64,000 bases of DNA from a virus. The position numbers and the translations under genes were made by a program. The stretch is from IMG/VR virus record IMGVR_UViG_3300018082_000009, positions 1,646 to 65,645 of that record; one strand, written 5' to 3'. This document shows positions 15,428 through 32,791 of the stretch, in pieces; the first letter of the stretch is position 1; each line of letters opens with the position of its first letter. The notes below the pieces were generated by a model. The model was not told the origin of the DNA. It made no database searches and was given only the letters and a program-made list of their open reading frames with translations.

Positions 15428-17287
15428 ATGCTGAAGTTGACGGAAGGCACCCAGAAAACGGAGCGGCCGGAGCCTAAGATCACGTTCATTCAGAAGGTCA
15501 TCAAGAATGAAACGTGGATGGTCATGGCGCAGTCGGCGGTGGAACTGGAGGATGAATTCTCCAGCCTCTATTACACCGCAGGCCAACAGAACAACCTCTT
15601 CCTCCAGCCCCCCTTCGAACCCAATGTCCTATTGAGTCTCGTCCAGACGAACAACGTCCTGAACCAGTGCATCGAAGCGATGGAAGTGAACATCGACAGC
15701 ACAGGTCACGAGTTCGTTCCGACCGAGGAGGGCAAGGATATCGACAAGTCCGAGGAGAAGATTGCCCAGTCCTTCTTCGATGAGCCCTACCCCAACACCT
15801 CCATGACAGAAATCCGGCGCAAGCTCCGCCGCCAGATGGAATCCATCGGCTATGGGTTCATCGAGGTGCTGCGGAATGTGGCCGGGGATGTCGTGGGTAT
15901 GCGGAGCGTAGAGACAGCCCACATCCGGATGGTGAAGCTGGACAAGCCCATTCAGGTGAAGAAGAAGGTCGAGCGGGATGGGAAGGAAGTGGAGTTGACG
16001 CTCTGGGAGCGTGAACGGCGCTTCGCTCAGACCGTGGCCCTGAACCAGTTGGTGTATTACCGTGAATTTGGCACAACCCGAGAGGTCCACCGGGACACCG
16101 GGGAGTGGGAGACGGAGGAGAAGAAAGTCCCGCCTGAGAAGCGGGGGTCGGAGTTGCTGCTGTTTGGTATCAACCCCGATATCACCACACCGTATTATCT
16201 CCCCCGTTGGATCAACCAACTGCCATCGGTTATAGGCTCCAGAGCCGCAGAGGAACAGAACCTGCAGTTCTTGGATGCCGGAGGTCTACCGCCCGCTATT
16301 GTCTTCATTCAGGGAGGCACGCTGATCAAGGACACATCCGACCAGCTACGGATGTACCTATCAGGTCTGAACAAGAACAAGAACCGGGCGGTAGTCGTTG
16401 AGGTCCAGTCCTCCAGTGGTTCGCTGGATGCGGCTGGCAAAGTGGATGTGAAGGTCGAACGCTTCGGCTCTGCTCAGAGTCAGGATGCGATGTTCACGAC
16501 CTACGATGAGACGACCAAGGAGCACATCCGCATCGGCTTCCGTCTCCCCCCGCTCTTTCTTGGCTATGCAGCGGACTACAACTTCGCTACGGCCCAGACC
16601 AGCTACATGGTGGCCGAGGCACAGGTCTTCCTCCCCGAGCGCACGGAATTCGATGAGGTGATGAACAAGACCATCATCAAGGAACTGAAGCTCAAGACGC
16701 TCCTGTACAACTCCAAGCCCATCACCCTGAAGGATGTCGCCACGCAGTTGCAGGGGTTGGAATTGGCCATGACCGTCGCCACGCGTGAATCCTTCCTGAA
16801 GGAGATGAATACCATCACCACGATGAATTTGGAGATGGCGGAAGTCCCGGCACAGGGTGCGGGCGACATGCATGAACCGCTGAAGAACACGCCAACCGCT
16901 GATGAGACGCCGTCTGGAGAACTACCCGCTGCGATGGAGTCGGTGCAACCCGCACTCAAGCCTGCTCCTCCGGAGAAGAAGGACGGACCCAAGGAAGTCG
17001 GGGCTATGGAAGAAGCCAAGGCTATGGCACGGGAGAAGGCCAAGGCCAAGTATCGCAAGGCGGCAGGCGATCTGATGTCTTTGGTGCAGGAGTACGCCAT
17101 CTATCAGGGCCTCCTCCCACAACTCGCACAGAAGCAGGAACTGACGGCGGAGCGAGCCGCAGAAATCAACCGTGACATCGAGACACTGACACCCGAGGAT
17201 GCCCGCGCCTTCAACAGTCTGTTGGCGATGTATGTCTTCGGGTCTGATGACGCAGACTTGTCGTCGCTGGTTGCGGCCACGAGATGA
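15428..17287 (+). CDS. portal protein, PBSX (XkdE-like) family
   Basis: L.PP....L..LV..N..L.QCI, GYGFIEV.R, YYLPRW, I..GFRLPPLFLG...DYNFATA; located at the start of the head module. Confidence 0.9.
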   Translation: MLKLTEGTQKTERPEPKITFIQKVIKNETWMVMAQSAVELEDEFSSLYYTAGQQNNLFLQPPFEPNVLLSLVQTNNVLNQCIEAMEVNIDSTGHEFVPTEEGKDIDKSEEKIAQSFFDEPYPNTSMTEIRRKLRRQMESIGYGFIEVLRNVAGDVVGMRSVETAHIRMVKLDKPIQVKKKVERDGKEVELTLWERERRFAQTVALNQLVYYREFGTTREVHRDTGEWETEEKKVPPEKRGSELLLFGINPDITTPYYLPRWINQLPSVIGSRAAEEQNLQFLDAGGLPPAIVFIQGGTLIKDTSDQLRMYLSGLNKNKNRAVVVEVQSSSGSLDAAGKVDVKVERFGSAQSQDAMFTTYDETTKEHIRIGFRLPPLFLGYAADYNFATAQTSYMVAEAQVFLPERTEFDEVMNKTIIKELKLKTLLYNSKPITLKDVATQLQGLELAMTVATRESFLKEMNTITTMNLEMAEVPAQGAGDMHEPLKNTPTADETPSGELPAAMESVQPALKPAPPEKKDGPKEVGAMEEAKAMAREKAKAKYRKAAGDLMSLVQEYAIYQGLLPQLAQKQELTAERAAEINRDIETLTPEDARAFNSLLAMYVFGSDDADLSSLVAATR

Positions 17288-19219
17288 ATGGCTAAAACCG
17301 TTGATCTTCGCACGTATCTCCTGCTGGAGCGAGCCTTCGTCCGTCGTCTGCAACGGTCGTGGCGGATGCTTTCCGCCCCCACGTATGCCCTGATTACCCA
17401 AGCCTGTCTCGACCACAAGTGGGATGAAGCCCGCCGTCTTGTGCCAGAATTGGACATGACCGAGGTGGGCACGGAGAACCGCGAGTGGATTACCTACATG
17501 CTCCTCTCCTGCGCGGTCTTTGGTGCAGGCACCGTGAGGAAGGGGAGGCCGTCCTTTGTCGGTGTGGGCACCTTCGATACCTTCCTGAAGCAAGTCACCA
17601 ACAACATCCTGACTTATCTGGAACTGTCAGCCACGGCACAGGTGCAGGAAGAGGCCCTGCAATCAATTGCAGAAGACGAGGCCAAGACCAAGGCCCAGAA
17701 GCGAGAGTATGTCCGTGATAAGGCCGGGAGGTTTGCCGAAACCGAGGGAGATACCGCACAGGAAGAGAGCACGGATACCGCTATTGGCCTGATCCATAGG
17801 GGCGTGGTGCGGGTGCGAGATTTGAAGGGACGGGATCCCTATGCCTCTGAGCACCGCCAACTCTGGATGACGGATGCATTTGCGACCGAGCGGTTTCGGT
17901 ACAATCGCGGCAGGATTGTGTGGTTGGATACGCCGAATGCCGAGGATTATTTTGCCGTAGAGAACCACTTTGTCCATCGAGGGTGGCCGGTCATCGGACA
18001 CTTCGGCCAGACCCGTGGCAATCGGTTGCCGGAACCCACACCCACTCTTAAGTGGGATGAGCACAAGCACCCACGGGACAAGGAGGGGCAGTTTGCGGCG
18101 ACCGGGGCTACCACCGAGGTGCTGGACGTTACGGACCCAGAGGGCAGTGGGCCGGAGCGGTTGAAGTGGAGGACGTTGAGCAGGGAAGCCGGGGAGGCGT
18201 TCGATGTCTTCATGGAAGCCAAGACTGCCCATCGAGCCAACGTGAACAAGGCGACGGATCGGTTGGAGGAATACTCCAAGACGCACCCAGACGCCTCCGT
18301 AGAGGAGATAGAGGCCGAGATTTGGAGCGATCCCGAATACCTCCGGACGAAGAAGATCGCCCAAGCGGCTGAAAAAGCGAAGAACGAAGCGGACGCCAGA
18401 CTCCGGTATCAAGAACCGGAAATGATGAAGGAAATAGTCCGGAACGTGGCCTACGGCGTGGCCGTGGACATGGGCGTGGATCCCTACATCATCAGCGTAG
18501 TGCATAAGAACCCTCCTGAATTCATGGTTGGGGAGAGGCAGTTCACAGAAGCTGGCCATTACACGCCGTCCAGCCGGTTGATTGAACTGAATGCCAAGAA
18601 CATCGGGTATGCGGACACACCCATGTTGAAGGGCCTCGTGTCGCACGAGGTGTCGCACTTTATCTATCACCGGCTGAAGGACGAAGTCGAGCGGGAGAGT
18701 GAACGCTACAAGATGCAGTCGGATCATTACCACGACAAGAAGAATGCGTGGTTCTACGAACGATTTAATCAACCCGGCGAGTTTGGGCTCAGCGGGTATG
18801 GTCCCATTACCGTAAAGCCGGAGTGGCGGGAGCGAGTGGAACAGGAGTTCCCCGCCTCCGCTGTCTGGTCGAAGCTCTCTGGTGGTGAGATGTTCACCGG
18901 CATCTCCGATGAGATGAAGGCGGAGAACGGTCATAGCGCATACGCCAAGTCCTACTGGGAAAAATCCGCTGTGAATAAGGCGGGATCCTATGACAAGGCC
19001 ATCAACGAGACGGTGGCCGAGGACACCCGGTATCTGGTGCATGAGAAGAACAAGGGGAAGGGCGGAGCCGGGTGGCATGAGCCGTCCAAGCCGTCACCAG
19101 ACTCCCAGTGGTTAGCGTTCACCAAGGCCATGCACACGTGGTATTTGGAGGGCAGTGAGTTTCGACGGGCAGGCGTTGAGCGCATTCGGGCGGAGTATGC
19201 CAAGCGGAAGGCCATATGA
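17288..19219 (+). CDS. head-associated polyprotein: putative MuF N-terminal segment, tagged unknown module, tagged zincin metalloprotease
   Basis: Tags at 17702 and 18053; HEVSH (18644-18658) plus downstream NETVAE. Confidence 0.75.
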   Translation: MAKTVDLRTYLLLERAFVRRLQRSWRMLSAPTYALITQACLDHKWDEARRLVPELDMTEVGTENREWITYMLLSCAVFGAGTVRKGRPSFVGVGTFDTFLKQVTNNILTYLELSATAQVQEEALQSIAEDEAKTKAQKREYVRDKAGRFAETEGDTAQEESTDTAIGLIHRGVVRVRDLKGRDPYASEHRQLWMTDAFATERFRYNRGRIVWLDTPNAEDYFAVENHFVHRGWPVIGHFGQTRGNRLPEPTPTLKWDEHKHPRDKEGQFAATGATTEVLDVTDPEGSGPERLKWRTLSREAGEAFDVFMEAKTAHRANVNKATDRLEEYSKTHPDASVEEIEAEIWSDPEYLRTKKIAQAAEKAKNEADARLRYQEPEMMKEIVRNVAYGVAVDMGVDPYIISVVHKNPPEFMVGERQFTEAGHYTPSSRLIELNAKNIGYADTPMLKGLVSHEVSHFIYHRLKDEVERESERYKMQSDHYHDKKNAWFYERFNQPGEFGLSGYGPITVKPEWRERVEQEFPASAVWSKLSGGEMFTGISDEMKAENGHSAYAKSYWEKSAVNKAGSYDKAINETVAEDTRYLVHEKNKGKGGAGWHEPSKPSPDSQWLAFTKAMHTWYLEGSEFRRAGVERIRAEYAKRKAI

Positions 19220-22200
19220 TTCCCGAACCCATCACTATCGACGGTAAGTCAGGCACCGTTGTCTATCTGGACAACGAGTGGCATCCGGTATCTCCGGAGC
19301 AGGCCACGATGGCGAAGGTGTTGTTCAATGACGGCACCGCTTCGTTCTTCTTTGCGGAGGAGCCGTCGAAGCCCGAGGGCATCGGTGGCCTGACCCGGAA
19401 GTTCGATGAGGCTCAGCACCCCAGAGGGGAGGACGGGCGGTTCAAGGAAGCCTCCCAACCCCGTGTGTTCAATCGTCCATCGGATGTGAAGTCTTATGAG
19501 TCGTGGGGCGGTGGGACTCGATGGGGGTGGGTTGATCCTAAAACTGGTGAAACCACCGGGATGCTGTTGACCGGTGAGCCTATTCCACGTGAAGGGATTC
19601 CTCCGAAGCTGTATCACGTCACCACGAATGCCCCAGCCGTGGAGTCGTCAGGAGTGCTCCTTGGGCAGCTAGGCGACACAGGGTTGGGTGGAGGGCAGGC
19701 CCAAGGGGTGTCGTTCACGGCGAGCCCAGAGGATGCGGTGGTCATCCAGCGGGAGTTGCGGCGAGCCGTCAGGGTGGCCAGAGGGGAAGACCGTATTGAG
19801 GATCTAGACCGGTATGCGCGGGAGGATGAACAGGAAGCTGGACTGCCTCCGCACACGCTGGATGATGCGGTGCAGTTCGCCAAAGACCAGTGGGGACCGA
19901 ATCAGCAGTCGATTGAACACACTTTCATCTGGGACAAGGATCTGCCCGAGGACAAGCGAGGATATGTCGGTCCTCCGCCACCTCCCGAGGAACAGGAGCG
20001 GTTGCGTCGTAGTTCGATGAACGATGCGTTGAAAGCCTACCTGCAGATTCGTGGCAAGCACGATGTGGAATACCCGCTGCTGAAGAATCCACTGCTCTTC
20101 GGGCGGCAGGAGCATCTGGCGAAGCTGAAACCAGAGGACGTGCAGATTCTGGAAGCGTCTGCAGAAGACATTCCGCTTGAAGCCTTGGTCACCACCGGCT
20201 CCGACAAGTTCCTCCATGAAGTCCGGGTCTATGCGGATGTCCCGAGGCGGCGGAAGGCGGCACGGGATTATGTCCGTGAACCTGCAGGCACGTCTGAGGG
20301 TGGGCAGTTTGCCTCCACAGGGACATCAGGTGTCTCTGCCTCCGATCCCGTGTTGGCCGTACAGGCTAAGGCTGGGATTGCCGCCGTTGAGAAGCTGTTA
20401 CCCGAGGCCATCAAGACCGCCGAGTATTCTTCTGGAGAACCGCAGGACTGGGATTCGGTGTCCGAGGAAGGGCAGGAGGAGGCGTATCACAAATACGTTG
20501 AGAATGCCTATGACGACATAGAAGTGGACACGTCATCGTTGAGTATGGATATCAAAGATGACTTGAAGAAGGACAACCAGAAGGTCTTGGATGAAGCCGT
20601 GGAGGACGTGGAGCGGCAGTTGTCCTACGAGTCGTTCATAGACGAATTTGGGGCTCAACGGGCATTGCCTGTCGAAGGGGAACGGTATACCACCACCCAT
20701 GAGGGTGAGGTTCAAGAGTATGTGTATCCGGCCAAAGTAGAAGAACAGTTCCAATTAAAGAGGACGTTGGACATTGAGACGTTGGACTATGGCTACGGCG
20801 ACGATGAAGACGGTGTGGTGGCGTTGGATTGGGACAAGCTCCGGTTCACCAACGGACAGGAACTGAACGAAGACCAGAAGGAAATCGTCAGACGAGCGTG
20901 GGATACGGCATACGAGAAAGCCTTTGAAGACAAGTTCCAAGAGGAGCTTGATTCTGATAGCTACATGGAAAAAGTCTCGGAGATGCGGGATGAAGCCGCC
21001 AGAGAACAATGGAACAACCTCGATGACGATGAGAAGCTGCAGTACTTCCAAAACTATGTTTCTGGACGGTATGGTGGGCGCAATTGGCAGCGGCAGATGC
21101 GGGAGGGAGAGCCCAAAGAGTGGGTCACCGGAGTGGAGACGGGGAAACACTCCGATGAGAACTATGCCCGCACCCATGCCATTGCCCTGAAGCTGGCGGA
21201 GCTTCGCACGGAGCAAGTGCTGGAAGAGCGTGGGTTAACAGGAGCTAAGAAAAAGCCTGAGTATGAAATTCGGGAAGTGACGGTTGATTACGATTCAGGC
21301 AGCAAAATCGAATGGCACGTCTTCGACAAGGAATCTGGAAAGCTGATCACCGGCACGGATACTGAGGGTGGGGCCGAGGCGGATGCCGAGGAGTGGGCGA
21401 GGACTGAGCAGCTACGAGGGAACATCAAGACCCCCCAGATGATTTCTGATGTGTGGGACCAGTGGAAGCGGTCGTCCAGCGATGGGCTGTCGATGTCCGT
21501 GCAATTGGCTGCAGCCCGAGAGTTGGGCGGGCACCATCGGATGACCCCCGAGGAAGTCATTGAGGCCGAGGCAGAAGCCAAGCCGTATGGGGGTATCCCC
21601 GTCATCCAAGCCTATGTCCGAGCCCAGTGGGAAACCACGCAGATGGTGATGGATAAGGCAGGAGCCGACAAAATCGAGGTCTACCGTGGCTTGATGTTGC
21701 CCGGAAACATGGTCAATGCCACCACACGGGTGTATCTTGATGAAGCAGGTAACAAAGTCACCACTTCTAACATCACGACAGGCATCGACAAAGTTGTGAG
21801 TAGGCCCTATGTGGGTTTCGATTTTGACGGTGAACACTTCGTGGTGCATAAGGAGCGGCGAGAACCCAAGAGCATCACGGAAATCGCACCGGAGACGTGG
21901 CATCAGGTGGATGACGCCACAAAGGCTAAGGTGAAGGAGCAGTGGGACAAGGATGCGGCTGACACACTGGTGGATCCGGAGATAGCAGCGTTAGATCCGG
22001 AGCGGGGCAAGCAGATCATTGACAAGCTGTATCAAAAGCTGGGGGATGATGGTCGATTCGACCTGATGCACACGTATGCCGCGCAGGGTAGGATTACGCT
22101 CCCGAAGTTCGACCTTCTACCCTATGAGACGGATGAGGAAGCCATCGAACGCCGGTTGACCAATTATCTCGGTAGCTACAGCGGGAACACCTACGTGAGA

Positions 22201-22656
22201 CTCCCTGATTTGGTCCTGCAACGGTCGGGAGCCCAGTCCACGACGGGCACACCCTCTGTCGCCAACTCGTGGGGTGGTGTCGGGGGCTTGCCGGAGAATC
22301 CCACTCGTGTGGTCATCCGTATCGAGGCCCCACCCACATCGGTCTTCTCGCTCCCCGTCTACGGACAGAATTCGCAGGAAGAGCACGAGACGGTGGTGCT
22401 GGGCACCAAGGACAAGTGGCTGTGGGATGCATGGCAGCACCGAGCCCCCACGTTTGAGACGCACACTATCACGGGAGCACCGATGCCGAAGAAACCACTG
22501 GAAGTGGAGTGGCCCAAGCCTGTTGATTATGACACCGAGCAGGCCCTGAAGGCCGAGAAGAAGCCGCTCGTGATAGACATGCAGGCGGAAGACCGTGGCA
22601 AGCCCCACTGGATGAGCACGGTGGATTGGGCCAAGGTGGAAGAGACGGAGAAGTAA
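19216..22656 (+). CDS. head-associated polyprotein: tagged H-type ART-fold module, then tagged acidic region and R-S-E ADP-ribosyltransferase
   Basis: Tags at 19402 and 20257; LYHVT/GVSFT/HEVRV; YRG (21682), STT (22237), EEHE (22378). Confidence 0.75.
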   Translation: MIPEPITIDGKSGTVVYLDNEWHPVSPEQATMAKVLFNDGTASFFFAEEPSKPEGIGGLTRKFDEAQHPRGEDGRFKEASQPRVFNRPSDVKSYESWGGGTRWGWVDPKTGETTGMLLTGEPIPREGIPPKLYHVTTNAPAVESSGVLLGQLGDTGLGGGQAQGVSFTASPEDAVVIQRELRRAVRVARGEDRIEDLDRYAREDEQEAGLPPHTLDDAVQFAKDQWGPNQQSIEHTFIWDKDLPEDKRGYVGPPPPPEEQERLRRSSMNDALKAYLQIRGKHDVEYPLLKNPLLFGRQEHLAKLKPEDVQILEASAEDIPLEALVTTGSDKFLHEVRVYADVPRRRKAARDYVREPAGTSEGGQFASTGTSGVSASDPVLAVQAKAGIAAVEKLLPEAIKTAEYSSGEPQDWDSVSEEGQEEAYHKYVENAYDDIEVDTSSLSMDIKDDLKKDNQKVLDEAVEDVERQLSYESFIDEFGAQRALPVEGERYTTTHEGEVQEYVYPAKVEEQFQLKRTLDIETLDYGYGDDEDGVVALDWDKLRFTNGQELNEDQKEIVRRAWDTAYEKAFEDKFQEELDSDSYMEKVSEMRDEAAREQWNNLDDDEKLQYFQNYVSGRYGGRNWQRQMREGEPKEWVTGVETGKHSDENYARTHAIALKLAELRTEQVLEERGLTGAKKKPEYEIREVTVDYDSGSKIEWHVFDKESGKLITGTDTEGGAEADAEEWARTEQLRGNIKTPQMISDVWDQWKRSSSDGLSMSVQLAAARELGGHHRMTPEEVIEAEAEAKPYGGIPVIQAYVRAQWETTQMVMDKAGADKIEVYRGLMLPGNMVNATTRVYLDEAGNKVTTSNITTGIDKVVSRPYVGFDFDGEHFVVHKERREPKSITEIAPETWHQVDDATKAKVKEQWDKDAADTLVDPEIAALDPERGKQIIDKLYQKLGDDGRFDLMHTYAAQGRITLPKFDLLPYETDEEAIERRLTNYLGSYSGNTYVRLPDLVLQRSGAQSTTGTPSVANSWGGVGGLPENPTRVVIRIEAPPTSVFSLPVYGQNSQEEHETVVLGTKDKWLWDAWQHRAPTFETHTITGAPMPKKPLEVEWPKPVDYDTEQALKAEKKPLVIDMQAEDRGKPHWMSTVDWAKVEETEK

Positions 22657-24492
22657 ATGCCCCGGAACATGCGGCAATTGATTGCAACTGTCCGGGCCAT
22701 GCTCCGGCCCCCGTATGCCACGGTGCTCAAGTGGAGTGAGAGTCAGCCACGTGGCCCAAAGGGCTCTCCGACTGGTGGGCAGTGGGTGAAGGGTGGCGGG
22801 AATGCGTCGATGTACGGGACACGGATTCTTCCGTCGTCTACGGAAATTGATCGAATGCCGCAGGGCACCCCCAAAGTCATCGCTCGTGGGCGACACGCGG
22901 GGCGAGTAGGGCGAGAAGAGAGAGAACGCCGGGAAGAGCGTGAAGCAGCGGAAGCGAAGGCCAGTGGCGGGGTGGCTGGGTATGCCACCATCATGAATGC
23001 TCCCATGGGCACGGGATTCAAGAATCGCCCCCGAGCAGCGGGATTTGATCCCGCAAAAGTTGCACCACCACCCAAAGATCCTGTCAATAAAGAGGTATTG
23101 CATGCTCTCACCAATGCTGAGGTGAGTCGAGTAGTCAAGGGCCTCAATGACGGTGTGAACGTCTCCGTCAAGGTGGAGATGGACGACCCGAACCACACCA
23201 AGGCCGTGTACAAGCCAGAGGCCGGGGAGCAATGGGGTTCAGGCTTTGCCAACGGGCAAATCGAAGACTGCATTACCAACAAGGATTTCTCTCTCGCAGA
23301 GCGGGAGGCCATGGCTTCTGAGGTGGACCGAGCCCTTGGTCTAAAGTTGGTGCCCACGACGGTCCTCCGCACGTCTCTCGATGTTGAAGGTATGGATACC
23401 TCCAGTGAGAACGAGGTGGTCTGGGACACCTATGAACTGCGGGGGATGTACGACGAGTACAAGGAGAAGGCCCAAGAAGACGCCATGGATGCGGTCGGCG
23501 GCGAGATGGCTGACCTGTATCAGGAGGCCCAAGGCGAGCACGTCAAGGACATCGAGAACCGCGCCCAAGAGATGATGGACATCTGGAATGAGGAGGTCAA
23601 GGACTTCCCCGACGAAGGCCCCTACGGAGCCGTGGAGGAGCTACAGAGGCACCCCAAGCTCCCTATGGGGTCAGCCCAGTCCTTCAGGCGACAGGAGCCA
23701 CAGGAGAAGGCCCTGAACCCGCTGGAGGTGTTGGACGAGGCAGGCGTGGATGTCAGTGCAGGGATGAGCAACCACGAGAAGGACCGGGTCCGTGCCATCC
23801 TCCGCCAGCGGCTGGAGGAGGGGTATCAGGAACTAGCCGATGTGAGTCGGCAGGAAGCCCGTGACCACCTCGACTACGACCAGTGGATGGAAGAACATCA
23901 GGATACTGAAGGCCGGTTGTACGAGAGCAAGATCAAGACCTTTACCCGGTGGGCCGAGGATAACGGCTACAACCGGGGCGAGGGTGATTCTGATCGGGGA
24001 GACAGGAATTCCGAGGCCCCCCATCCCAATGGGGGTTCCCTCCAGCACTTCATCTCTGGGCTGGACGGGTATGGAAGCCCGTCCACGGATGACATCACCA
24101 AGCTGGCGGTGCTGGACTACGTTATCGGGACCATGGACCGCCACGGCGGCAACCTGATGTACCACGGGGATAGCCCAGTGGCCATTGACAACGGCTACAG
24201 CATGCCCGCCCCCAACGATCCGGATGAGCCCGACGACTTCACCTATCGGTCCCGTGCCGTCAGGGATTGGAGGGACGGAGGACGAGGGGTGGACGGTGTG
24301 TCTGAGGACCAGCGTGCGCCCATCCTGCAGGCCCTAGAAGCCACGGACTGGAAGGCACTGGCAGACCGCCATCCCAACATGTCTCAGGGGGAGCGAGACG
24401 CCTTCTTGGGGCGTGTGGAGCGTATGCGGGACGCTCTCCAGACGGATTTGGGCCTGTATCGGCTGTGGAAACAGCAGGATTTAATGGGTTAA
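22657..24492 (+). CDS. tagged PI3/PI4-kinase/HipA-like kinase with a large acidic insertion
   Basis: Tag at 22732; VYKP, EREAMA..VD..LG..LVPTTV, GSLQ, LDYVIG.MDRHGGN, IDNG. Confidence 0.85.
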   Translation: MPRNMRQLIATVRAMLRPPYATVLKWSESQPRGPKGSPTGGQWVKGGGNASMYGTRILPSSTEIDRMPQGTPKVIARGRHAGRVGREERERREEREAAEAKASGGVAGYATIMNAPMGTGFKNRPRAAGFDPAKVAPPPKDPVNKEVLHALTNAEVSRVVKGLNDGVNVSVKVEMDDPNHTKAVYKPEAGEQWGSGFANGQIEDCITNKDFSLAEREAMASEVDRALGLKLVPTTVLRTSLDVEGMDTSSENEVVWDTYELRGMYDEYKEKAQEDAMDAVGGEMADLYQEAQGEHVKDIENRAQEMMDIWNEEVKDFPDEGPYGAVEELQRHPKLPMGSAQSFRRQEPQEKALNPLEVLDEAGVDVSAGMSNHEKDRVRAILRQRLEEGYQELADVSRQEARDHLDYDQWMEEHQDTEGRLYESKIKTFTRWAEDNGYNRGEGDSDRGDRNSEAPHPNGGSLQHFISGLDGYGSPSTDDITKLAVLDYVIGTMDRHGGNLMYHGDSPVAIDNGYSMPAPNDPDEPDDFTYRSRAVRDWRDGGRGVDGVSEDQRAPILQALEATDWKALADRHPNMSQGERDAFLGRVERMRDALQTDLGLYRLWKQQDLMG

Positions 24493-24495
24493 CCG

Positions 24496-24504
24496 TGCTA
24501 TAAT
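24496..24504 (+). promoter_or_regulatory. extended -10 promoter for the small gene after the kinase
   Basis: Consensus TGCTATAAT 19 nt upstream of ATG 24523, with GAGG RBS. Confidence 0.6.
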
Positions 24505-24522
24505 AGGGCATGTGAGGAAATC

Positions 24523-24744
24523 ATGCATGTCAATTTGAACGATTATACGGAATTTGGCAAGGTCAAGCTGATGGCGACGATTCGGGTGTCGAAGGGTCAG
24601 CTTCAGGTGGAAGGCAAAATTCCACCGGGTATTCGTGGGGAATTGGAAGACCAGCACCAGCGGGTGACCGAGGATGAAGCGTTCCTCCGGTCCCTGCCCA
24701 AGGTCTTCTCCGGCACCTACGTCCGAGCGCAGTTCGTGGCCTGA
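24523..24744 (+). CDS. 73-aa protein, candidate immunity/antitoxin for the kinase
   Basis: Untagged, directly downstream of the kinase, has its own promoter. Confidence 0.6.
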   Translation: MHVNLNDYTEFGKVKLMATIRVSKGQLQVEGKIPPGIRGELEDQHQRVTEDEAFLRSLPKVFSGTYVRAQFVA

Positions 24745-25649
24745 TGCTCAGGATCCTGACGGAGCCCGTGCAATTAATTGCACCCTCGCTGGTGGGGGTG
24801 CTGAAGTACGCCCCTACGCAGACCCGAGCCCCCAAAGGCACGTCAACCGGAGGGCAGTTTACAGGTGATCCCACGCATGCCCGAACTGCTGATGTCACGC
24901 AGATGCAGTCGGCGTTTACTGGGGAAGCTGAGCGTATGGCCCCCGGTATCACGCCCCGAACTCCGGGACAACGTGCCACCGTGAAAGAACAGATCCAGCG
25001 GGAGTTGACGACGCGATTGTACGCACACTCGGCGTTTACAGGCATGTCACTGGAAGACGTGTCTGCTTGGGTTAAGGGTAAAATTGATTTGTGGGCGGAG
25101 ACATCAGGTGATAGTGACGTGGATGCCGGGGTCATGCAGTTGGCGGTCCAAGCGGAGTTTGGACTGCACGGTGCCGCCACGGACCACATTACGAGTGCCA
25201 TCAAACAAATGCACGGGGTGGGGATCAAGCTGCCGGAGAGAGAAGGCGCACGGCTCCGAGCCTTTGCACGCGCTGAGTATGAGCGCACGCAGGAGTGGTT
25301 CAAGTCTCAAGGCATTATGCACGTCACCGCGTTTCGGGGGATGGACGATCCTGATGATGCACTGGGCTACGGTTACGAAGACATCACGATGCAACCGGCG
25401 TCGTCATGGACCACAAATTTAGAGATTGCGTTTGCGTTCACGGCGGAGAAGGAGCGGCCCAAAATTCTCTCGGCGCGAGTTCCGGTATCTCAGGTGTTGA
25501 GTACGTGTGTGACCGGGCGTGGGTGTTTGATTGAGCATGAAATAATCCTGATGGGCAAGCCGCAACGCGCCCGTGTGTTTGGCGTGAGCGGGGATACGTT
25601 TTATGTGGATGGTCCTGAAGTCCAAAAGATTCGACGGACATTGGAATGA
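24744..25649 (+). CDS. tagged R-S-E ADP-ribosyltransferase
   Basis: Tag at 24807; FRG (25332), SSWTT (25401), IEHEII. Confidence 0.8.
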   Translation: MLRILTEPVQLIAPSLVGVLKYAPTQTRAPKGTSTGGQFTGDPTHARTADVTQMQSAFTGEAERMAPGITPRTPGQRATVKEQIQRELTTRLYAHSAFTGMSLEDVSAWVKGKIDLWAETSGDSDVDAGVMQLAVQAEFGLHGAATDHITSAIKQMHGVGIKLPEREGARLRAFARAEYERTQEWFKSQGIMHVTAFRGMDDPDDALGYGYEDITMQPASSWTTNLEIAFAFTAEKERPKILSARVPVSQVLSTCVTGRGCLIEHEIILMGKPQRARVFGVSGDTFYVDGPEVQKIRRTLE

Positions 25650-26344
25650 ACATCGACGCTATCCTCACGAACGCCGATTGGCCGAAGCGGACTCCAGACA
25701 AGTTTGCGGATCTGGTCCAAAAGTACGATCCCAATCAGCCCCGTGGACCGAAGGGCTCACCAGAGGGCGGGCGGTTCACCAAGGCTCAGATGGCGTTTCT
25801 GGAGCAACATGGGGTGCAACGCCGAGGCACACCCGCCGCTGAGATGCAACGGGAGCCCTTGCCGAAGACACTGGCAGAGGCCGAGGATCGCATTCGGAAT
25901 GAACCCAACGAACATGCGTTTCTGATCCGAGATGGGAAACCCGTCAAGGTCACAGGTGATGACGATTCGCACCACATTCGGATGGGGGGCATGACGGAGG
26001 CGGATCTGAAGGATGTCGTGTTCACGCATAACCATCCGTCTGGGTTTGGGCTGAGTAACAAGGACGGGATTTCAGCCGCTCGTTTCAATATGCTGGAGAT
26101 GCGGGCGGTGACAAATCTCGGTACTCATATCATTCGACGGACAGGGACGGAGTGGCCCCCGAATTTTGCGGAGGAGTTGAAGGAACTAGACGGCATGCTT
26201 CGTGGCATGTTGGGCATGCAGATCCATGATCAGGAAATTACCGCTGACGAAGCGAATGCGCTGCATCATTTTCTCATTTACGAGCGATTGCAGAAGAAAC
26301 TAGGCGGCTTCGTGTTCACTCATGAGTCCAAGGGTCATGGCTAA
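25646..26344 (+). CDS. tagged JAB/MPN (RadC-like) metalloenzyme
   Basis: Tag at 25724; NEH...THNHPSG..LS.KD, EMRAV. Confidence 0.8.
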   Translation: MNIDAILTNADWPKRTPDKFADLVQKYDPNQPRGPKGSPEGGRFTKAQMAFLEQHGVQRRGTPAAEMQREPLPKTLAEAEDRIRNEPNEHAFLIRDGKPVKVTGDDDSHHIRMGGMTEADLKDVVFTHNHPSGFGLSNKDGISAARFNMLEMRAVTNLGTHIIRRTGTEWPPNFAEELKELDGMLRGMLGMQIHDQEITADEANALHHFLIYERLQKKLGGFVFTHESKGHG

Positions 26345-26429
26345 GGGGCTGTGGCTTCTGACCCTCCCATTCTTCTTAGGCTGTGCTTTGTTCGTGACCG
26401 TGCGGGAACTGGTGAGACATGACTCCTGA
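26337..26429 (+). CDS. 30-aa single-TM peptide
   Basis: MAKGLWLLTLPFFLGCALFVTVRELVRHDS; overlaps both neighbouring genes. Confidence 0.35.
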   Translation: MAKGLWLLTLPFFLGCALFVTVRELVRHDS

Positions 26430-29400
26430 AGAACTGCTGATTGACGACCACGAGTTTGAGACGCCCATCTACGTCTCCGTGCAGGAATTCACACGGAAGT
26501 GGGAAGAGGCGAAGCACCGTCGAGACAAGGCAGGCCGGTTCGCAGATACCGCCTCCGTCACGGTCGGGGACCGCCAGATTGCCGTGGTCAAACCCCGTCG
26601 AGCCGCCAAGGCTGGGGATGTGATGGTGCCGCTGGACGTGGTCCGGTTCGATGAGGAATTCCAGCGGGAGGAAGGGTTCTATCTTGGAGTCGGAGGCCAT
26701 GGAGGCATCGGCAACCGCTACGAACGCTTCGGGCAGTTCATCGGACAAGCAAACTCCATTGAAGCCGCCGAGGTTACGGTCCAAGAGAATGGCCGGGTAG
26801 GGTTCACCAACGGACGCCACCGGTATGCATGGCTTAGGGACCAAGGGCTCACCTCCATCCCCGTGGCGATGACCCCGGAGTCAGCCAAGCACGCCAAGCG
26901 GTATGGGCTCCTCGCTCCAGTGAAGAAGGCGTGGGATGAGAGCCAGCATCCACGGGATGCCGAAGGGCAGTTTACCGCACAAGGTTTGGTGGCGTTGTTC
27001 GCAGAAGGCAAGAGCCCCACAGGCGCACAGATTCTTGTATCAGCAGAAGACTGGGGTTACGGGTCTACTAAGTTCATTCTCCCCAGCGGGAAACGACTCG
27101 CTCACATGCAGGATACCCACGCTGCCGCCGCGCATGCGTTGGGGGTGGATCTGGATGATGTGATGCGGGCGGGGATCCTGCGGTATACCCCCGGCTCTGG
27201 CGCAGAGATTGGTGCGCCGATGACGAAGGCGCAAGCGCAGCATCTGGTGGATTCCACCATCGAGTCTGGAGGTAATCACCCGTTGTTTGTGGACGTGTTC
27301 CATGGAAGGGAACGCTTCGCCAAGGTCTTTGACCCTGATCGGACGAATGCGAATACTGTCCGGAACTGGGTGAATTCGCACTTCAAAGTGCAGAAGGGCG
27401 AGCATGCCTTCGGCAATACCCAGATCCAGATCGCCCCTACCAGTTCAGCCGCCATGAGTCTGAACATGGCCCGAGACGCCATCAGCGATGATGACGTGAT
27501 GGCCAGCGGCAAGGACGTGGATCCCAACCACTTGACCGTCCGCTTCGGCCTCCTTAACGAGGACTTGAACAAGCTTCGCACCTTCATCACCGAACAGACG
27601 CCGTTCACTGCATATGTGGAAGGCGTGGAGTTGTTCCCGGTCAGCGATCACAGCGATGGAGCCGTGCCGGTGGTGGCGGTCATCGAGAGCCCGGAACTAC
27701 GGGACATCGAGGCGGAGATTGGGAACTACGCGGACTTCAAGGAGAAGTCGTTCCCGGTTTACAAACCCCACTGCACACTGGCGTACTGTAAACCGGAGGC
27801 CGCACCCAAGTACAAGGACTTGGCTGTGGGAGGCTCTTTTACGGTCCAGAGCATCACCATCAGCCACCAATCTGGGGTGTTGGAGACGATTCCCTTTGGC
27901 ATGGTGGCCAAGCGGGAGTGGACAGAGGCCCAACACCGTCGTCAGCCCAAAGGCTCTGCCCACGGTGGGGAGTTCGTGGCAGGGCCGAAGGACGCACTGG
28001 AGTCCATGCTCCATGGGGAGAAGGTCGGCATCGCACGGGGAGACGTGCGTAAGCTCTTGGAGAAGGTGCTGGAACAGAAAGAGGATCCCAACCTCACCCA
28101 CCTTCAAGTCGAGGGGATGACCATTTTCGGTGGGGAGGGGTTGGGTATCAAGCGGGAGGACATGCCGCAGGTTCCCAAGGTGCATCGTCGTCAATTTCTG
28201 CAGGAAATGGAGGCCAATGGTGTCAAGATTCTGGAGGAGACAGTTGATCCTCTGACACTCAAGCCTACGCAGAAGGAGATTGGTGCCCGGAACGTGGCGG
28301 AGAAGCTGGAGCGGTATGAGAAGGGGGGTAAGGTGTTTCCTCCTCTGCTCGTCTCCAGTGAGGGACGCATCCTCGACGGGCATCATCACTGGGGCATGAT
28401 GGCGGCATTCGCCGTGGACGTGCCAGAGGCCAGAGTCCCCATCTACCGGCTGATGGTCAGCACCAAGAAGGCGCTGGCCCTGATGCATGCCTACAACAAG
28501 AAGCATGGTATCGAACGGAAGGCACTGGGACAGAAGAAGGATCCGGTATCGGGAAGGTATGTCACCCCGTTCGTGGACTTCAGCCAGCATGGCAGTCAGC
28601 AGTTGCAATTGATTGCCAGCCTGAACAGCAGTCGTCTGGCGACATGGGGCTTCACGGCGGAGGCCGAGGTGCTGGGCATGGCCCGGTACAAGCTCACAGC
28701 GGTGTTGGATGGGCGCACCAGTCAGTTCTGCCGGTTCATCGACGGGAAGATTTTCAATGTCCCAGAGGCCCGCAGGAAGGTCATTGAGGTGCTGGAGGTG
28801 CAGAACCCGGAAGACCTTCGGGTGGTGCAACCATGGCCCAAACAGACCCGAGCCGCCATGGCCGCGTATGCGGAGATGTCATCAGCCGAATTGACCGAGC
28901 GTGGTCTGCATATTCCCCCCTACCACCCCTACTGCCGCACTATCTGCCGAGCCATTGCTTCCAGTGCGGGGAAGGTGCTGAGCACGGTGCCCACCATCCC
29001 CGCAGAGGTGGAAGCCTTTCAGCAAGTCACCGCAGCGGACCTGAAGGAGATGGGTGTCGAGGCCACCCCCGAACAGGTAGCCCAGTGGAACGAGCACGTG
29101 GGCATGACCCCCGTGGAATTGCTCTCCAAGCTCTCACAACTCCCTCCGCAGGAGGTGATGACCAAGGGGCAGGGAGTCGGGACCAGACCTGTCACCTTCG
29201 ACGCAGATGGAGACATTGGGTTCAAGGTCAACGGAGAGACACCGTCTGGAGTGGAGTTCAAGCTGAACGCCATACTGGAGCCCTTCACCGGCACGTATTA
29301 CCTGACACAGGCGGAGTTACTGGCAGGCAATCCCAAGGCGGAATTGCAGTTCCTGAAGACGCTTTTCATGAACTTCATAGAGATGGGGATGAAGTCCTCT

Positions 29401-29748
29401 GCCACGTCTCTCGCCATCGGAGTGGCAGGCAATGCACCCTATTATGCTCAATTGGGTTTCCTCCCAGACGAATTGGAGTGGGACTCCCTCCGGCTCTATG
29501 CCCAAGGGCAGTTGGAGAGTGAGGTGCTGCAGCCGGTGTTGGCGTCATTGACGGCCGAGGACCGACTGCTCGTGGAGCATCTGCTCCAAGACCATTCACC
29601 ATGGGCGATGTCAGCCCTCGTGGAACTGCCCTTCACCTATGAAGGGAGGACCATTGGGGAGTGGTTATTTGCAGAGGCATCTGGCACGTGGGCGCTGGAT
29701 CTGACGGATGATTTGCTGGTGGCACAAGCCAGAGGACATCTCGCATGA
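26419..29748 (+). CDS. head polyprotein: ParB-like, unknown, 2H phosphoesterase, ParB-like, MuF (SPP1 gp7-type) core, GNAT-like tail
   Basis: NGRHRY (~26810); HLT (27529) and HCT (27769); DGHHHW (28375); AVLDGRTSQFC (28699) and PPYHPYCR (28915); YYAQLGF (29440). Confidence 0.85.
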   Translation: MTPEELLIDDHEFETPIYVSVQEFTRKWEEAKHRRDKAGRFADTASVTVGDRQIAVVKPRRAAKAGDVMVPLDVVRFDEEFQREEGFYLGVGGHGGIGNRYERFGQFIGQANSIEAAEVTVQENGRVGFTNGRHRYAWLRDQGLTSIPVAMTPESAKHAKRYGLLAPVKKAWDESQHPRDAEGQFTAQGLVALFAEGKSPTGAQILVSAEDWGYGSTKFILPSGKRLAHMQDTHAAAAHALGVDLDDVMRAGILRYTPGSGAEIGAPMTKAQAQHLVDSTIESGGNHPLFVDVFHGRERFAKVFDPDRTNANTVRNWVNSHFKVQKGEHAFGNTQIQIAPTSSAAMSLNMARDAISDDDVMASGKDVDPNHLTVRFGLLNEDLNKLRTFITEQTPFTAYVEGVELFPVSDHSDGAVPVVAVIESPELRDIEAEIGNYADFKEKSFPVYKPHCTLAYCKPEAAPKYKDLAVGGSFTVQSITISHQSGVLETIPFGMVAKREWTEAQHRRQPKGSAHGGEFVAGPKDALESMLHGEKVGIARGDVRKLLEKVLEQKEDPNLTHLQVEGMTIFGGEGLGIKREDMPQVPKVHRRQFLQEMEANGVKILEETVDPLTLKPTQKEIGARNVAEKLERYEKGGKVFPPLLVSSEGRILDGHHHWGMMAAFAVDVPEARVPIYRLMVSTKKALALMHAYNKKHGIERKALGQKKDPVSGRYVTPFVDFSQHGSQQLQLIASLNSSRLATWGFTAEAEVLGMARYKLTAVLDGRTSQFCRFIDGKIFNVPEARRKVIEVLEVQNPEDLRVVQPWPKQTRAAMAAYAEMSSAELTERGLHIPPYHPYCRTICRAIASSAGKVLSTVPTIPAEVEAFQQVTAADLKEMGVEATPEQVAQWNEHVGMTPVELLSKLSQLPPQEVMTKGQGVGTRPVTFDADGDIGFKVNGETPSGVEFKLNAILEPFTGTYYLTQAELLAGNPKAELQFLKTLFMNFIEMGMKSSATSLAIGVAGNAPYYAQLGFLPDELEWDSLRLYAQGQLESEVLQPVLASLTAEDRLLVEHLLQDHSPWAMSALVELPFTYEGRTIGEWLFAEASGTWALDLTDDLLVAQARGHLA

Positions 29749-29993: not shown

Positions 29994-30419
29994 ATGCCTC
30001 TGCACCATACGGGTCTGGTGTCTCGCCGGGAACTGGACCATCCGGAGGAGAAACCTCGTGAGGTGCCTACCTTTGAACACGTCCTGAAATACAATCCTCA
30101 TCATGGTCCCGATGGACGCTTCACGAGTGGTGGGAGCAAGCGTGGGCACATTCAGGGACTCAGTAAGCTGCCCGTTCGTGATTGGCCTTCACTTCAAGGC
30201 CCGACAGGTGGACGACACATCCCCGGACTGAGTCCCCTCGCTGTTCGTGATTGGCCCTCACTCCAAGCCAAGGGAGTGCAGCGGGCACTGGATGCTTCTG
30301 TGAGTGGACCCGCTACTCCTGAAGCGGCCCATATCCGCCGACAGGCGCACACGTCGTTCCAGACCAAGAGTGGACAGAAGCACACGCTGAACCCGGCCAA
30401 GAGCACCTTCCGGATTTAG
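29994..30419 (+). CDS. small tagged basic protein
   Basis: GGAGAG RBS; HVLK|YNPHHGPDGRF. Confidence 0.7.
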   Translation: MPLHHTGLVSRRELDHPEEKPREVPTFEHVLKYNPHHGPDGRFTSGGSKRGHIQGLSKLPVRDWPSLQGPTGGRHIPGLSPLAVRDWPSLQAKGVQRALDASVSGPATPEAAHIRRQAHTSFQTKSGQKHTLNPAKSTFRI

Positions 30420-30421
30420 TC

Positions 30422-30901
30422 ATGCCCCTCACGACGGGATTCACGACCCGTGGGTTGGCCCTGAAAGGGAAGGGTCATATCCATACGGACAAGTGGCATC
30501 GGTGCATCGAGCACGTGGAGGCCAAGGGCGGCGGCTATGAGCCGCATGCCGTCTGCACCCACGCCATCGGCTACAAGGAATCGATCAATCCGGAGCACCG
30601 CACGCCCGGACCCCATGCCTCCGCCAACACACGACGGTTCAAAGAGTCTGCAAAGAGACGCCGGGAGGCGAAGGAAGCTCAGGATTACGCAGCCATTTTG
30701 AAGCTCGATGTGCATCGTGTGTTGAAAGACCATAAGTGCTGGGGACATGAGTGCGGTGGAAAAAAGCGTCATCCCTCTGATCCCGCCCCGAATGCGGATG
30801 CCAGACCAGCACGGGATGCCAGTGCTAAGCCAGCGGCAGATGCGGACGCTAGACCGTATGACGTAGCCGAGCGGTTGAAGCGGAAGTACTTCAAGAAGTA
30901 A
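30422..30901 (+). CDS. His/Cys-containing small basic protein
   Basis: KWHRCIEHV..HAVCTHAIG; HKCWGHEC; several xLK sites. Confidence 0.65.
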   Translation: MPLTTGFTTRGLALKGKGHIHTDKWHRCIEHVEAKGGGYEPHAVCTHAIGYKESINPEHRTPGPHASANTRRFKESAKRRREAKEAQDYAAILKLDVHRVLKDHKCWGHECGGKKRHPSDPAPNADARPARDASAKPAADADARPYDVAERLKRKYFKK

Positions 30902-30903
30902 CC

Positions 30904-31113
30904 ATGCCGTCTTACGTAGCAGTGCTGAAGTTCAATTCGAACCATGACCAGACAGGTCGGTTCGCAGCGGGGAAGTCCAAGGGTGGTACCCTGCACTTCA
31001 GGAAGTCACCGGGAAAAGCCAAAGCCCAAGGCGGGTTGTTTGATCTGTTGGACATGTTGCGTGGAAAGAAGACCCCGAAGCCGAAGCTGGGGCCAGTCGT
31101 GAAGATCAAGTAG
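30904..31113 (+). CDS. small tagged Lys-rich protein
   Basis: AVLK|FNSNHDQTGRF. Confidence 0.65.
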   Translation: MPSYVAVLKFNSNHDQTGRFAAGKSKGGTLHFRKSPGKAKAQGGLFDLLDMLRGKKTPKPKLGPVVKIK

Positions 31114-31115
31114 CC

Positions 31116-32087
31116 ATGCCACTCACCGAAGGATTGGTCAGCAGGAAGATGTGCATCGGTCCCCCGACGCAGGGGTATGCCGAGAAGCGCAAGAAGAAGC
31201 CTGCCTTTGCGGTGACTTTGAAGTTCAACCCCCACCATGACAAAGAGGACGGGCGTTTTACCTTCGGGTCTGGTGGTGGGAAGAGTGGTTCGAAGCGCAC
31301 CCCTGCTCAGCAGGCCATACAGGATGCATTTGCCAGACAGGAGAAGAAGCCCGTCCACAAGGTGAAGACCGCCGAAGAGGCCGTCGCACTGGTCCTGAAG
31401 GGAGAGAACGTCGAGATTCAGGACACCAAGGACGTGCATACGGTGCTGAAGAAGCTGGGAGAAATGGCTATCGAGGCTAAGAGCAAGGGCTCTAAGGCCC
31501 CGAACTTTGATCCCTGCACCATCACCGTCAAAGGCGTCAGCCTCTTCTGCACGGAGAAGATTCGCACGGAGGAATTCCCCCACGGCATCCCTCGCATTGA
31601 GATGCCACAGTTCAAATCCTTGACGCCCATCGAGGGAACAGACGCGGACAAGCTCCCACGGGATGATCAAGGAGAGGTGGATGCGAGCGGAGCCTTTCTC
31701 TCGCACCTCAAGGAGTTGGGTGTCGCCACTGAGGTGAAGTCCGTGCTTGCCCGGAAGTTGAAGGCCAGTCAGGCCGAGATGGAAGGGTCTAAAGTCGCGG
31801 GGATGATGCTCAATGAGAAGCGGAACCCCAAGGAAGCGCACATCTGGGTGTCCAAGGACAACTACGTCATCGACGGACATCACACGTGGGCGTCAGCAGT
31901 CGGTCGAGACGCAGAAGACGGCAACCTTGACAACGACATGAAGATGAAAGTCGTCGTAGTCGATATGCCCATGTCCGAGGTCTACCACTTGGCGAAGAAG
32001 TGGACTCGTGCGTATGGGTTGCCGGGACATGGGGTGGCAAAGCGTGAATTCAGGCACGTGTTAGCTGGTAGCCAAAAAGGAGAGTAG
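31116..32087 (+). CDS. tagged ParB/Srx-like domain protein
   Basis: Tag at 31224; GIPRIEMPQ, LKASQ, IWVSKDNYVIDGHHTW. Confidence 0.75.
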   Translation: MPLTEGLVSRKMCIGPPTQGYAEKRKKKPAFAVTLKFNPHHDKEDGRFTFGSGGGKSGSKRTPAQQAIQDAFARQEKKPVHKVKTAEEAVALVLKGENVEIQDTKDVHTVLKKLGEMAIEAKSKGSKAPNFDPCTITVKGVSLFCTEKIRTEEFPHGIPRIEMPQFKSLTPIEGTDADKLPRDDQGEVDASGAFLSHLKELGVATEVKSVLARKLKASQAEMEGSKVAGMMLNEKRNPKEAHIWVSKDNYVIDGHHTWASAVGRDAEDGNLDNDMKMKVVVVDMPMSEVYHLAKKWTRAYGLPGHGVAKREFRHVLAGSQKGE

Positions 32088-32774: not shown

Positions 32775-32791
32775 TTCGATTGAGAAATCCT

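Follow-up and report, generated by a model that had tools for sequence, protein, structure and literature searches.

Can the gene for a minor head protein be pulled apart into two widely separated halves and still serve as a carrier of other proteins? This question is raised by a 64-kb stretch of DNA (hereafter the window) from the 68-kb IMG/VR virus record IMGVR_UViG_3300018082_000009, for which CheckV estimates a completeness of 59%. An earlier note, made from the letters of the window alone, proposed that a head-morphogenesis gene of the MuF/SPP1-gp7 type had been interrupted by inserted genes, the ancestral gene being positions 17288–17701 joined to 28537–29748. Our analysis indicates that this region is very probably a split MuF gene with cargo inserted at a hinge between its two parts, a claim that concerns both structure and evolutionary history. 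The ancestor would have been a protein of approximately 530 amino acids (aa), encoded directly after the portal and consisting of an N-terminal helical domain (N-domain), a hinge that is short and disordered, the MuF core and, at the C-terminus, a GNAT-like domain (C-domain). This gene would have been pulled apart at the interdomain hinge, such that the N-domain now heads protein P0002 and the core and C-domain end protein P0007 (Table 1). Between the halves lie approximately 10.8 kb of modules that carry a short peptide tag and are predicted to be zincin-like, kinase-like, ParB-like and 2H phosphoesterase modules, along with several unassigned ones.

The N-terminal unit lies directly after the portal at the coordinates given in the earlier note and is conserved as a separate unit. 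In 13 related contigs, conservation extends to ...AEDEAKTKA (aa 136) and divergence starts right after it. The core motifs AVLDGRTSQFC and PPYHPYCR are found at positions 28699 and 28915, as noted previously, both within the open reading frame (ORF) 26419–29748 that encodes P0007. Pfam Phage_Mu_F and several head-morphogenesis PHROGs (phrog_30193, phrog_9907 and phrog_241) match aa 724–874 of this protein. The distance between the two halves is 10,832 bp (17702–28533). A profile of relatives in which a single ORF encodes both parts (unsplit; 48 proteins, 535 positions) was searched against the whole 68-kb record and matched at two places only: profile positions 1–144 at 17300–17719 (E = 3.9e-44) and positions 131–533 at 28507–29739 (E = 2.1e-135).

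Homologues that span both halves were found among cultured phages and metagenomes. A tblastn search of cultured phages with P0002 aa 1–145 identified Stenotrophomonas phages Summit, DLP3 and DLP5 only, and P0007 aa 700–1109 matched the same gene in these phages, directly downstream of the N-domain match and on the same strand. The Summit ORF (L001:1855–3195, 446 aa) is located directly after the portal gene. Its aa 3–143 align with P0002 aa 7–148 (E = 7e-18), and its aa 138–300 align with P0007 aa 706–864 (E = 1e-55, 49% identity). Two single ORFs from IMG/VR, L045 (536 aa) and L047 (542 aa), can be aligned over their full length with the joined halves of the window, including the 229-aa domain after the core, and the window core is 49–54% identical to these unsplit relatives. 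The N-terminal half adjoins the portal stop codon in the window, and unsplit relatives, including the closest one (P0035), are also located directly after the portal. Thus, the joined gene postulated in the earlier note has contiguous counterparts in three cultured phages and in many metagenomic relatives, and the profile recovers exactly its two parts from the record. One element of that proposal had to be corrected: the segment KKDPVSGRYV preceding the core is the native hinge and not a truncated tag, since unsplit proteins have V-Q/K-K-A-D/E ... R-F/Y-V at this place.

Two annotations of the cultured phages differ from this picture. The start of the Summit MuF gene is annotated at 1993, which is 138 nucleotides (nt) too far downstream for an ORF that extends from 1855. 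The homologue in the cultured phages (gp2 in DLP3) bears the label "ParB-like nuclease domain protein", whereas it actually represents a MuF protein whose C-terminus holds a ParB-like domain.

Structure models place the insertion point more precisely. The AlphaFold2 model of P0035 (531 aa), computed from a 48-row alignment, has a mean predicted local distance difference test score (pLDDT) of 91 and a predicted template modelling score of 0.71. Helices extend over aa 4–129, the sole segment with pLDDT below 50 is aa 131–142, and the core opens with a long helix at aa 143. The insertion point thus corresponds to the only disordered hinge of the model. The model of P0037, a relative with an insert in one ORF, displays the N-domain, a confident 2H domain (aa 136–309) and then the core, with low confidence confined to the joints (aa 132–135 and 310–334) and one 3-residue loop.

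The P0035 model, which represents an unsplit relative rather than the window's own proteins, was compared with the Swiss-Prot models using Foldseek. It matched B. subtilis YqbB (aa 4–270), HI_1407 (aa 1–340) and the EFV MuF-ART protein (aa 1–439), each with a probability of 0.99 and with modest E-values of 4e-3 to 2e-2. We take YqbB and HI_1407 to be prophage proteins of the MuF/gp7 type; if so, the N-domain is part of the canonical MuF architecture. Foldseek against the PDB with the same model gave no MuF-like solved structure; the C-domain (aa ~310–531) matched GNAT acetyltransferases with a probability of 0.99 but a weak E-value of ~0.08, and looks weakly GNAT-like. A PDB sequence search with the unsplit-family profile gave nothing usable. 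By sequence, the N-domain has no family in Pfam or PHROGs, nor do most of the cargo modules, and the MuF N-terminus of Vibrio phage PG28 showed no significant BLASTP match to P0002, so that sequence comparison recognises the N-domain within this subfamily alone. A complex prediction for P0002 aa 1–140 and P0007 aa 706–1109 scored 0.00, with the partner poorly folded without an alignment, and counts neither way.

The distribution of the two parts across the family was surveyed with a phmmer scan of 1.84 billion cluster representatives using the N-domain, which returned 143 matches. These were sorted by hidden Markov models of the N-domain, core and C-domain; 140 were confirmed, all with the N-domain at the N-terminus. 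Unsplit proteins account for 61 of the 140 (hinge gap 9–39 aa, total length ~515–560 aa), and another 39 have an insert of 41–1,502 aa at the same junction within one ORF. The N-domain stands by itself in 40, including every match at least 61% identical to the window and the window's whole clade.

These 40 proteins, which lack a core in the same ORF, could be taken to mean that there never was a single ancestral gene and that the N-domain is an independent portal-proximal adaptor brought here by ordinary domain shuffling, and Pfam has no model that covers the N-domain. However, the core is downstream in the same ORF in 100 of the 140 proteins, with nothing but the short hinge in between in 61 of those. 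Nearly all deep branches of the N-domain tree carry unsplit forms, the structural alignments with YqbB and HI_1407 extend over both parts, and each split relative examined has the core gene further downstream in its operon. We consider the absence of a common ancestral gene to be very improbable.

In the N-domain tree, the window's clade comprises 16 rows, of which 15 were scored as split and one was too short to score, and has a support of 99. The clade is nested in a mixed group of insert-bearing and unsplit forms, and this group is placed beside subclades that are almost entirely unsplit. The tree, which was rooted at the midpoint only, requires at least 26 state changes, at least 8 of which are forced by well-supported branches. 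The hinge has accepted in-frame cargo repeatedly across the family, and single ORFs of the relatives reach lengths of 1,700 to at least 1,972 aa. Since one-ORF forms with inserts occur in sister lineages, in-frame insertion probably preceded the breakup into several cistrons. Within the clade of the window, the insert would have grown to 3–15 kb and come apart into several cistrons that abut tightly or overlap.

Two further arrangements were observed among the relatives. P0049 (L059:4134–10052), a single ORF of at least 1,972 aa, is located after a portal gene and ahead of a gene for an S78_2 protease; its MuF N-domain and core are separated by 2H, bacterial topoisomerase IB and ART-PolyVal domains. 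In P0051, P0063 and P0098, a large insert is found between the core and the C-domain instead of at the hinge, which represents a second and less common insertion site.

Among the contigs of the window's clade, whose portals are 68–97% identical, the distance from the start of the N-domain to the start of the core varies from 3.5 to ~15.5 kb, and the content, order and copy number of the modules all differ, which is the variability at the junction that the earlier note had named as support for its model. L032 and L043 have modules F and G in reversed order, L041 has a duplicated module D, and the N-domain is fused straight to a 2H domain in L022, L042 and L024. Depending on the contig, the core is immediately preceded by a ParB-like or by a 2H module. 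Module B, which has the HEVSH motif and a SprT-like Pfam match below the cut-off (E = 0.023), is found in most relatives at 39–47% identity, and the insert of L050 has HELGH. The small ORF of 73 aa directly follows the kinase module in L013, L018, L014, L019, L020, L011 and L041 (tblastn). The cargo modules are often far more diverged (39–49%) than the halves that bracket them (70–86%). The joints are constant: the N-terminal half ends with ...AEDEAKTKA and the core half begins with (K/Q)K.DP.SGRYVTPFVSF in every member of the clade. An assembly artefact was considered and ruled out, because more than 12 independent metagenome contigs share this bracketed arrangement.

According to blastn, precisely the 345-bp cassette 17702–18046 is missing from the closest relatives, L003 and L004 (89% nt identity in the portal). 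This cassette is joined exactly at the end of the N-domain and, judged from the alignment, seems to have been gained or lost recently at the predicted site. In the same two contigs, an insert of 180 bp separates the portal from the N-domain gene (L003:3743–3923 and L004:5080–5260); it apparently encodes a small hydrophobic protein and has no counterpart in the window. The suggestion in the earlier note that modules may have accumulated by recombination between tag-coding repeats is plausible from the sequences; the tag-coding DNA is only 63–77% alike over 48 nt, which is too little to argue for homology-driven exchange.

Both halves are under purifying selection. Within the split clade, the ratio of nonsynonymous to synonymous substitution rates (dN/dS) is 0.03–0.23 for the N-domain and 0.09–0.19 for the start of the core, and at least 12 distinct contigs retain the two halves. 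The conservation of the halves is close to that of the portal; in L008, for example, the identity is 85.5% for the N-domain, 79% for the core and 80% for the portal. These values bear on the idea that the locus is a decaying MuF gene that was disrupted by morons and has lost its function, a loss that could be tolerated since gp7 of SPP1 is dispensable for assembly (PMC6316719). Low dN/dS and portal-like conservation make decay unlikely, and the frames are uninterrupted and either abut closely or overlap, which leaves hardly any room for this explanation. The carrier appears to still work with its halves encoded separately.

The large genes of the region are on the plus strand throughout. The junctions from P0002 to P0007 are mostly TGA-ATG, ATGA or TAA-ATG, and all three frames are used, which suggests separate cistrons that are probably translationally coupled, and not one frame. 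If the array were instead translated as one giant polyprotein by read-through or frameshifting, MuF would be unsplit at the protein level. The portal and P0002 are indeed in the same frame with one TGA between them (17285–17290), as are P0003 and P0004 with one TAA (22654–22659), and one-ORF versions such as P0049 exist in relatives. However, the seven large cistrons occupy all three frames and are joined by ATGA or stop-ATG junctions, a pattern typical of translationally coupled genes, and gaps of 30–74 nt precede the small ORF and P0007. Judged from frames and junctions, we regard translation as one polyprotein as extremely unlikely.

It has been shown for SPP1 that gp7 enters the procapsid by binding to the portal, is packaged in a few copies and supports infection (PMC6316719). 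The MuF homologue gp2 of DLP3 was detected by mass spectrometry in virion preparations and was discussed as having a plasmid-partition function (PMC7326821). By analogy with gp7-type proteins, both halves of the split MuF and the tagged proteins are likely to be packaged into the head.

What, then, marks the proteins between the two halves? A strict tag pattern searched in all six frames of the window gave nine matches, all on the plus strand, of which eight are within 17288–29748; the tag is not a chance feature. The ninth match (32843–32878) is located inside the protease gene, in the stretch VYAPNRPDAQGEY, which is conserved in the Summit protease. In the 92 distinct tags of the clade, the three positions ahead of the aromatic residue are V/I/A, L/Q/K/R and K (67 of 92); the aromatic residue is W or F and is followed by D and by E or P, and the tags end with G-R/Q/K-F/W. 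In the 48 unsplit proteins, the hinge has V (29), Q or K (31), K (46), A (36) and E or D (34), followed after a variable stretch by R (34), F or Y (38) and V or L (44); the Lys is thus kept in 46 of 48 although the hinge is disordered. The cargo tags, which share V/L-x-K-aromatic-D ... G-R/Q-F among themselves, look like expanded copies of the hinge. Other subfamilies have the tag form K-A-N-P-Y-H-D..G-R-F right after the N-domain, and a literature search found no earlier description of the NPYHD tag. Each separately translated cargo gene has a tag near its N-terminus (aa 23–67), and 2H modules are joined right after V-Q-K with no remainder of a tag.

The hinge motif recurs in two other head proteins. 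V-x-K-A-D is present at aa 6–11 of the capsid protein (K-A-D at aa 9–11) in 14 of the 14 distinct relatives examined, down to 60% identity, and the motif of the scaffold-like protein is conserved across the clade. The pattern has four occurrences in the ~20,700-aa plus-strand proteome of the window, two of which are these sites. The capsid protein gave no PDB or Pfam sequence match. In HK97-type assembly, the capsid protein and the scaffold are trimmed by the prohead protease. Since K-A-D recurs in all three of these proteins, hinge included, and an S78_2 protease is encoded nearby, we infer that the head protease may cut at the hinge. We therefore propose, as a tentative reading of these motifs that may well prove wrong, that the hinge (V-x-K-A-D ... 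G/P-R-F/Y) is a short linear signal, that the tags are expanded copies of it, and that the S78-type protease cuts after the Lys. Cleavage would free the modules inside the capsid. Maturation would then separate the two halves anyway, and a genetic split would be harmless or come at low cost.

The same history is compatible with a different role, in which the hinge and the tags would stay uncut and serve as signals for docking to the portal, to the scaffold or to the inside of the capsid wall, and the two halves would bind independently, in likeness to encapsulin cargo-loading peptides and the T4 capsid-targeting sequence. The targeting of gp7 through portal binding agrees with docking (PMC6316719). 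An N-terminal tag on every separate cargo gene is what would be expected of a loading signal and would be unneeded for a mere cut site between domains. Moreover, the tag Lys is followed by Trp or Phe, as compared to Ala in the motifs of the capsid and scaffold proteins. Against docking, V-x-K-A-D is present at the capsid N-terminus and in the scaffold-like protein, the two kinds of protein that the protease trims in HK97-type assembly, and the direct attachment of 2H modules after V-Q-K suggests that the element common to all joints is the part ending in Lys. We consider uncut docking possible, yet rather unlikely; a cut at the Lys followed by docking of the rest of the tag would accommodate both roles.

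A more far-reaching version of the cleavage proposal is that the hinge is the prototype of a portable two-part cargo signal, composed of a protease site ending in Lys and a peptide D ... G-R-F with which the MuF core and each freed cargo module would then begin. Any protein flanked by hinges would then be loaded and freed in the head, and the N-domain and the core, acting in trans, would form the constant ends of a train of exchangeable cargo. The hinge would also be the ancestor of all the widespread HPRD..G.F and NPYHD..GRF tags found in polyvalent proteins from phages and conjugative elements. This extension is speculative and we hold it doubtful.

Several observations weigh against a split at the hinge with hinge-derived cargo signals, or limit its reach. 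The PF04233 match to the window core (E = 9.1e-4, 20.4 bits) is below the gathering score of 29.6 bits; among unsplit relatives, L047 passes with 35.9 bits and L045 has 28.9 bits. As the record is incomplete, a second intact MuF gene may be located elsewhere. Some representatives with only the N-domain outside the window's clade may be fragments of contigs or of ORF calling. The likeness of tags and hinge rests on short motifs, and with an aromatic residue in place of Ala after the Lys, the tags may differ in fate from the native hinge. Finally, ORFs with a tag of an N-P-H-H-D dialect are located downstream of the core gene, which suggests that the hinge is not the sole cargo site or route.

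This second dialect is found near the N-termini of three ORFs in 29994–32087, as VLKYNPHHGPDGRF, VLKFNSNHDQTGRF and TLKFNPHHDKEDGRF, the last of which is also ParB-like (phrog_2859). The head module thus has two ParB-like modules of phrog_2859, one at P0007 aa 495–699 inside the split and one at 31116–32087 downstream (E = 2.3e-18). A Pro/Gly-rich protein of 210 aa with GLPGG..YPSQ-type repeats and no family match is encoded at 32093–32725, just 5' of the prohead protease gene. The features of the region are listed in Table 1.

Table 1. Genes and domains of the split MuF region and its surroundings (positions in the window).
Feature	Position	Strand	Evidence or remark
Portal P0001, 619 aa	15428–17287	+	phrog_12 portal, E = 3.2e-25; 50% identity to phage Summit portal
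P0002, 643 aa	17288–19219	+	ATG directly after portal TGA
P0002 aa 1–138, MuF N-terminal all-helical domain, probable first half of split gene	17288–17701	+	
Cassette: tag REYVRDKAGRF and cargo module A	17702–18046	+	
Tag KWDEHKHPRDKEGQF and cargo module B with HEVSH zincin-like motif	18047–19219	+	
P0003, 1146 aa, two tags and cargo modules C and D	19216–22656	+	
P0004, 611 aa, N-terminal tag at 22732 and PI3/PI4-kinase-like domain	22657–24492	+	PF00454, E = 3.7e-8, above cut-off
Small ORF, 73 aa, untagged	24523–24744	+	
P0005, 301 aa, tag and cargo module F	24744–25649	+	
P0006, 232 aa, tag and cargo module G	25646–26344	+	
P0007, 1109 aa, cargo followed by MuF core and C-domain	26419–29748	+	
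P0007 aa 1–696, cargo: three tags, PFIN/ParB-like, module I, 2H phosphoesterase, ParB-like	26419–28506	+	PF22162, E = 6.6e-5; PF13563, E = 1.2e-6; phrog_2859, E = 1e-31; tags at 26500, 26932 and 27919
Native-type MuF hinge kept with core half (...GQKKDPVSGRYV)	28507–28563	+	Unsplit-profile match resumes at profile position 131
MuF/SPP1-gp7 core, P0007 aa 706–880, probable second half of split gene	28534–29058	+	
Conserved C-terminal domain of MuF subfamily, putative GNAT-like fold	29059–29748	+	In L045, L047 and L050
Four small ORFs downstream of the split	29994–32087	+	Three with the other tag dialect (K-Y/F-N-P/S-H/N-H..GRF)
Prohead maturation protease	32780–33373	+	PF14550 Peptidase_S78_2, E = 2.9e-25; 56% identity to Summit protease
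Scaffold-like protein, VVQKAD near C-terminus at aa 306	33378–34454	+	Homologous to Summit gene 005
Major capsid protein, VIRKAD at aa 6–11	34502–35443	+	70% identity to Summit capsid protein

The arrangement shares features with several known systems. As for SPP1 gp7 and Mu gpF (PF04233), the gene is adjacent to the portal gene and has the core motifs LDGRTS.FC and PP.HP.CR, and the close unsplit relative P0035 aligns with YqbB over both the N-domain and the core. In the window, however, the N-domain and the core are on separate polypeptides encoded 10.8 kb apart, and there is an additional, putatively GNAT-like C-domain. The internal proteins and Alt of phage T4, which have a capsid-targeting sequence, and the Dar proteins of phage P1 are encoded separately, enter the prohead by means of a short signal at the N-terminus and accompany the DNA on delivery; the T4 prohead protease cleaves the capsid-targeting signal off. 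The window signal has no sequence relation to these, appears to be derived from the hinge and recurs inside polyproteins. In HK97, cleavage of the capsid protein gp5 takes place after Lys103, with S-D-A-D-S-A-G, a motif of the form S-D-x-D/E-x-A-G, a few residues further on. In the window, the capsid K-A-D is located five residues before S-D-L-E-T-A-G and an S78-family protease is encoded nearby, whereas the capsid protein has no long delta domain; cleavage here is predicted from motifs.

The published MuF toxins have their variable domain at the C-terminus (PMC5576092, PMC10083569, PMC12226406). The polymorphic toxins (Jamet et al. 2017, PMC5576092; Apk2, PMC10083569) resemble the window in that MuF carries variable effectors and that a small ORF follows one of the effectors, here the kinase. 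They consist of an intact MuF with a C-terminal toxin, whereas the window has its variable modules between the N-domain and the core, a conserved domain after the core and a carrier broken into cistrons, in agreement with the difference from C-terminal fusions pointed out in the earlier note. A literature search on MuF and cargo found nothing.

Strings of enzymatic domains linked to MuF or portal genes, including zincin-like peptidase, ParB-like and 2H domains, are also described for the polyvalent proteins, which are thought to be packaged and injected and whose domain content is highly mosaic between relatives (Iyer et al. 2017, PMC5512222). In the portions of that paper covered here, MuF is one domain among many, and no N-terminal MuF half, hinge site or hinge-like tag is described (PMC5512222). 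Polyvalent proteins combine 2–15 effector-type domains in one polypeptide in a packaging context, and P0007 is composed of PFIN/ParB-like, 2H and ParB-like domains, the MuF core and the GNAT-like domain. Their common hub domain is a zincin-like metallopeptidase, for which the HEVSH motif and the weak SprT-like match of P0002 mark a possible candidate in the window.

The internal disordered hinge represents a new cargo site, whose loads can be as small as one 2H domain or exceed 10 kb of genes. For annotation, a gene after the portal that encodes only the N-domain can be read as the start of a probable head-packaged cargo block that ends at the MuF core, a rule that would also correct the label "ParB-like nuclease domain protein" given to gp2 in Delepquintavirus phages. 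The K-A-D motif common to the hinge, the capsid protein and the scaffold-like protein provides a testable hypothesis of processing. The hinge is a natural loading site for proteins that the phage probably carries in its head, and as a natural insertion point it is a candidate for engineering the loading of proteins into phage heads.

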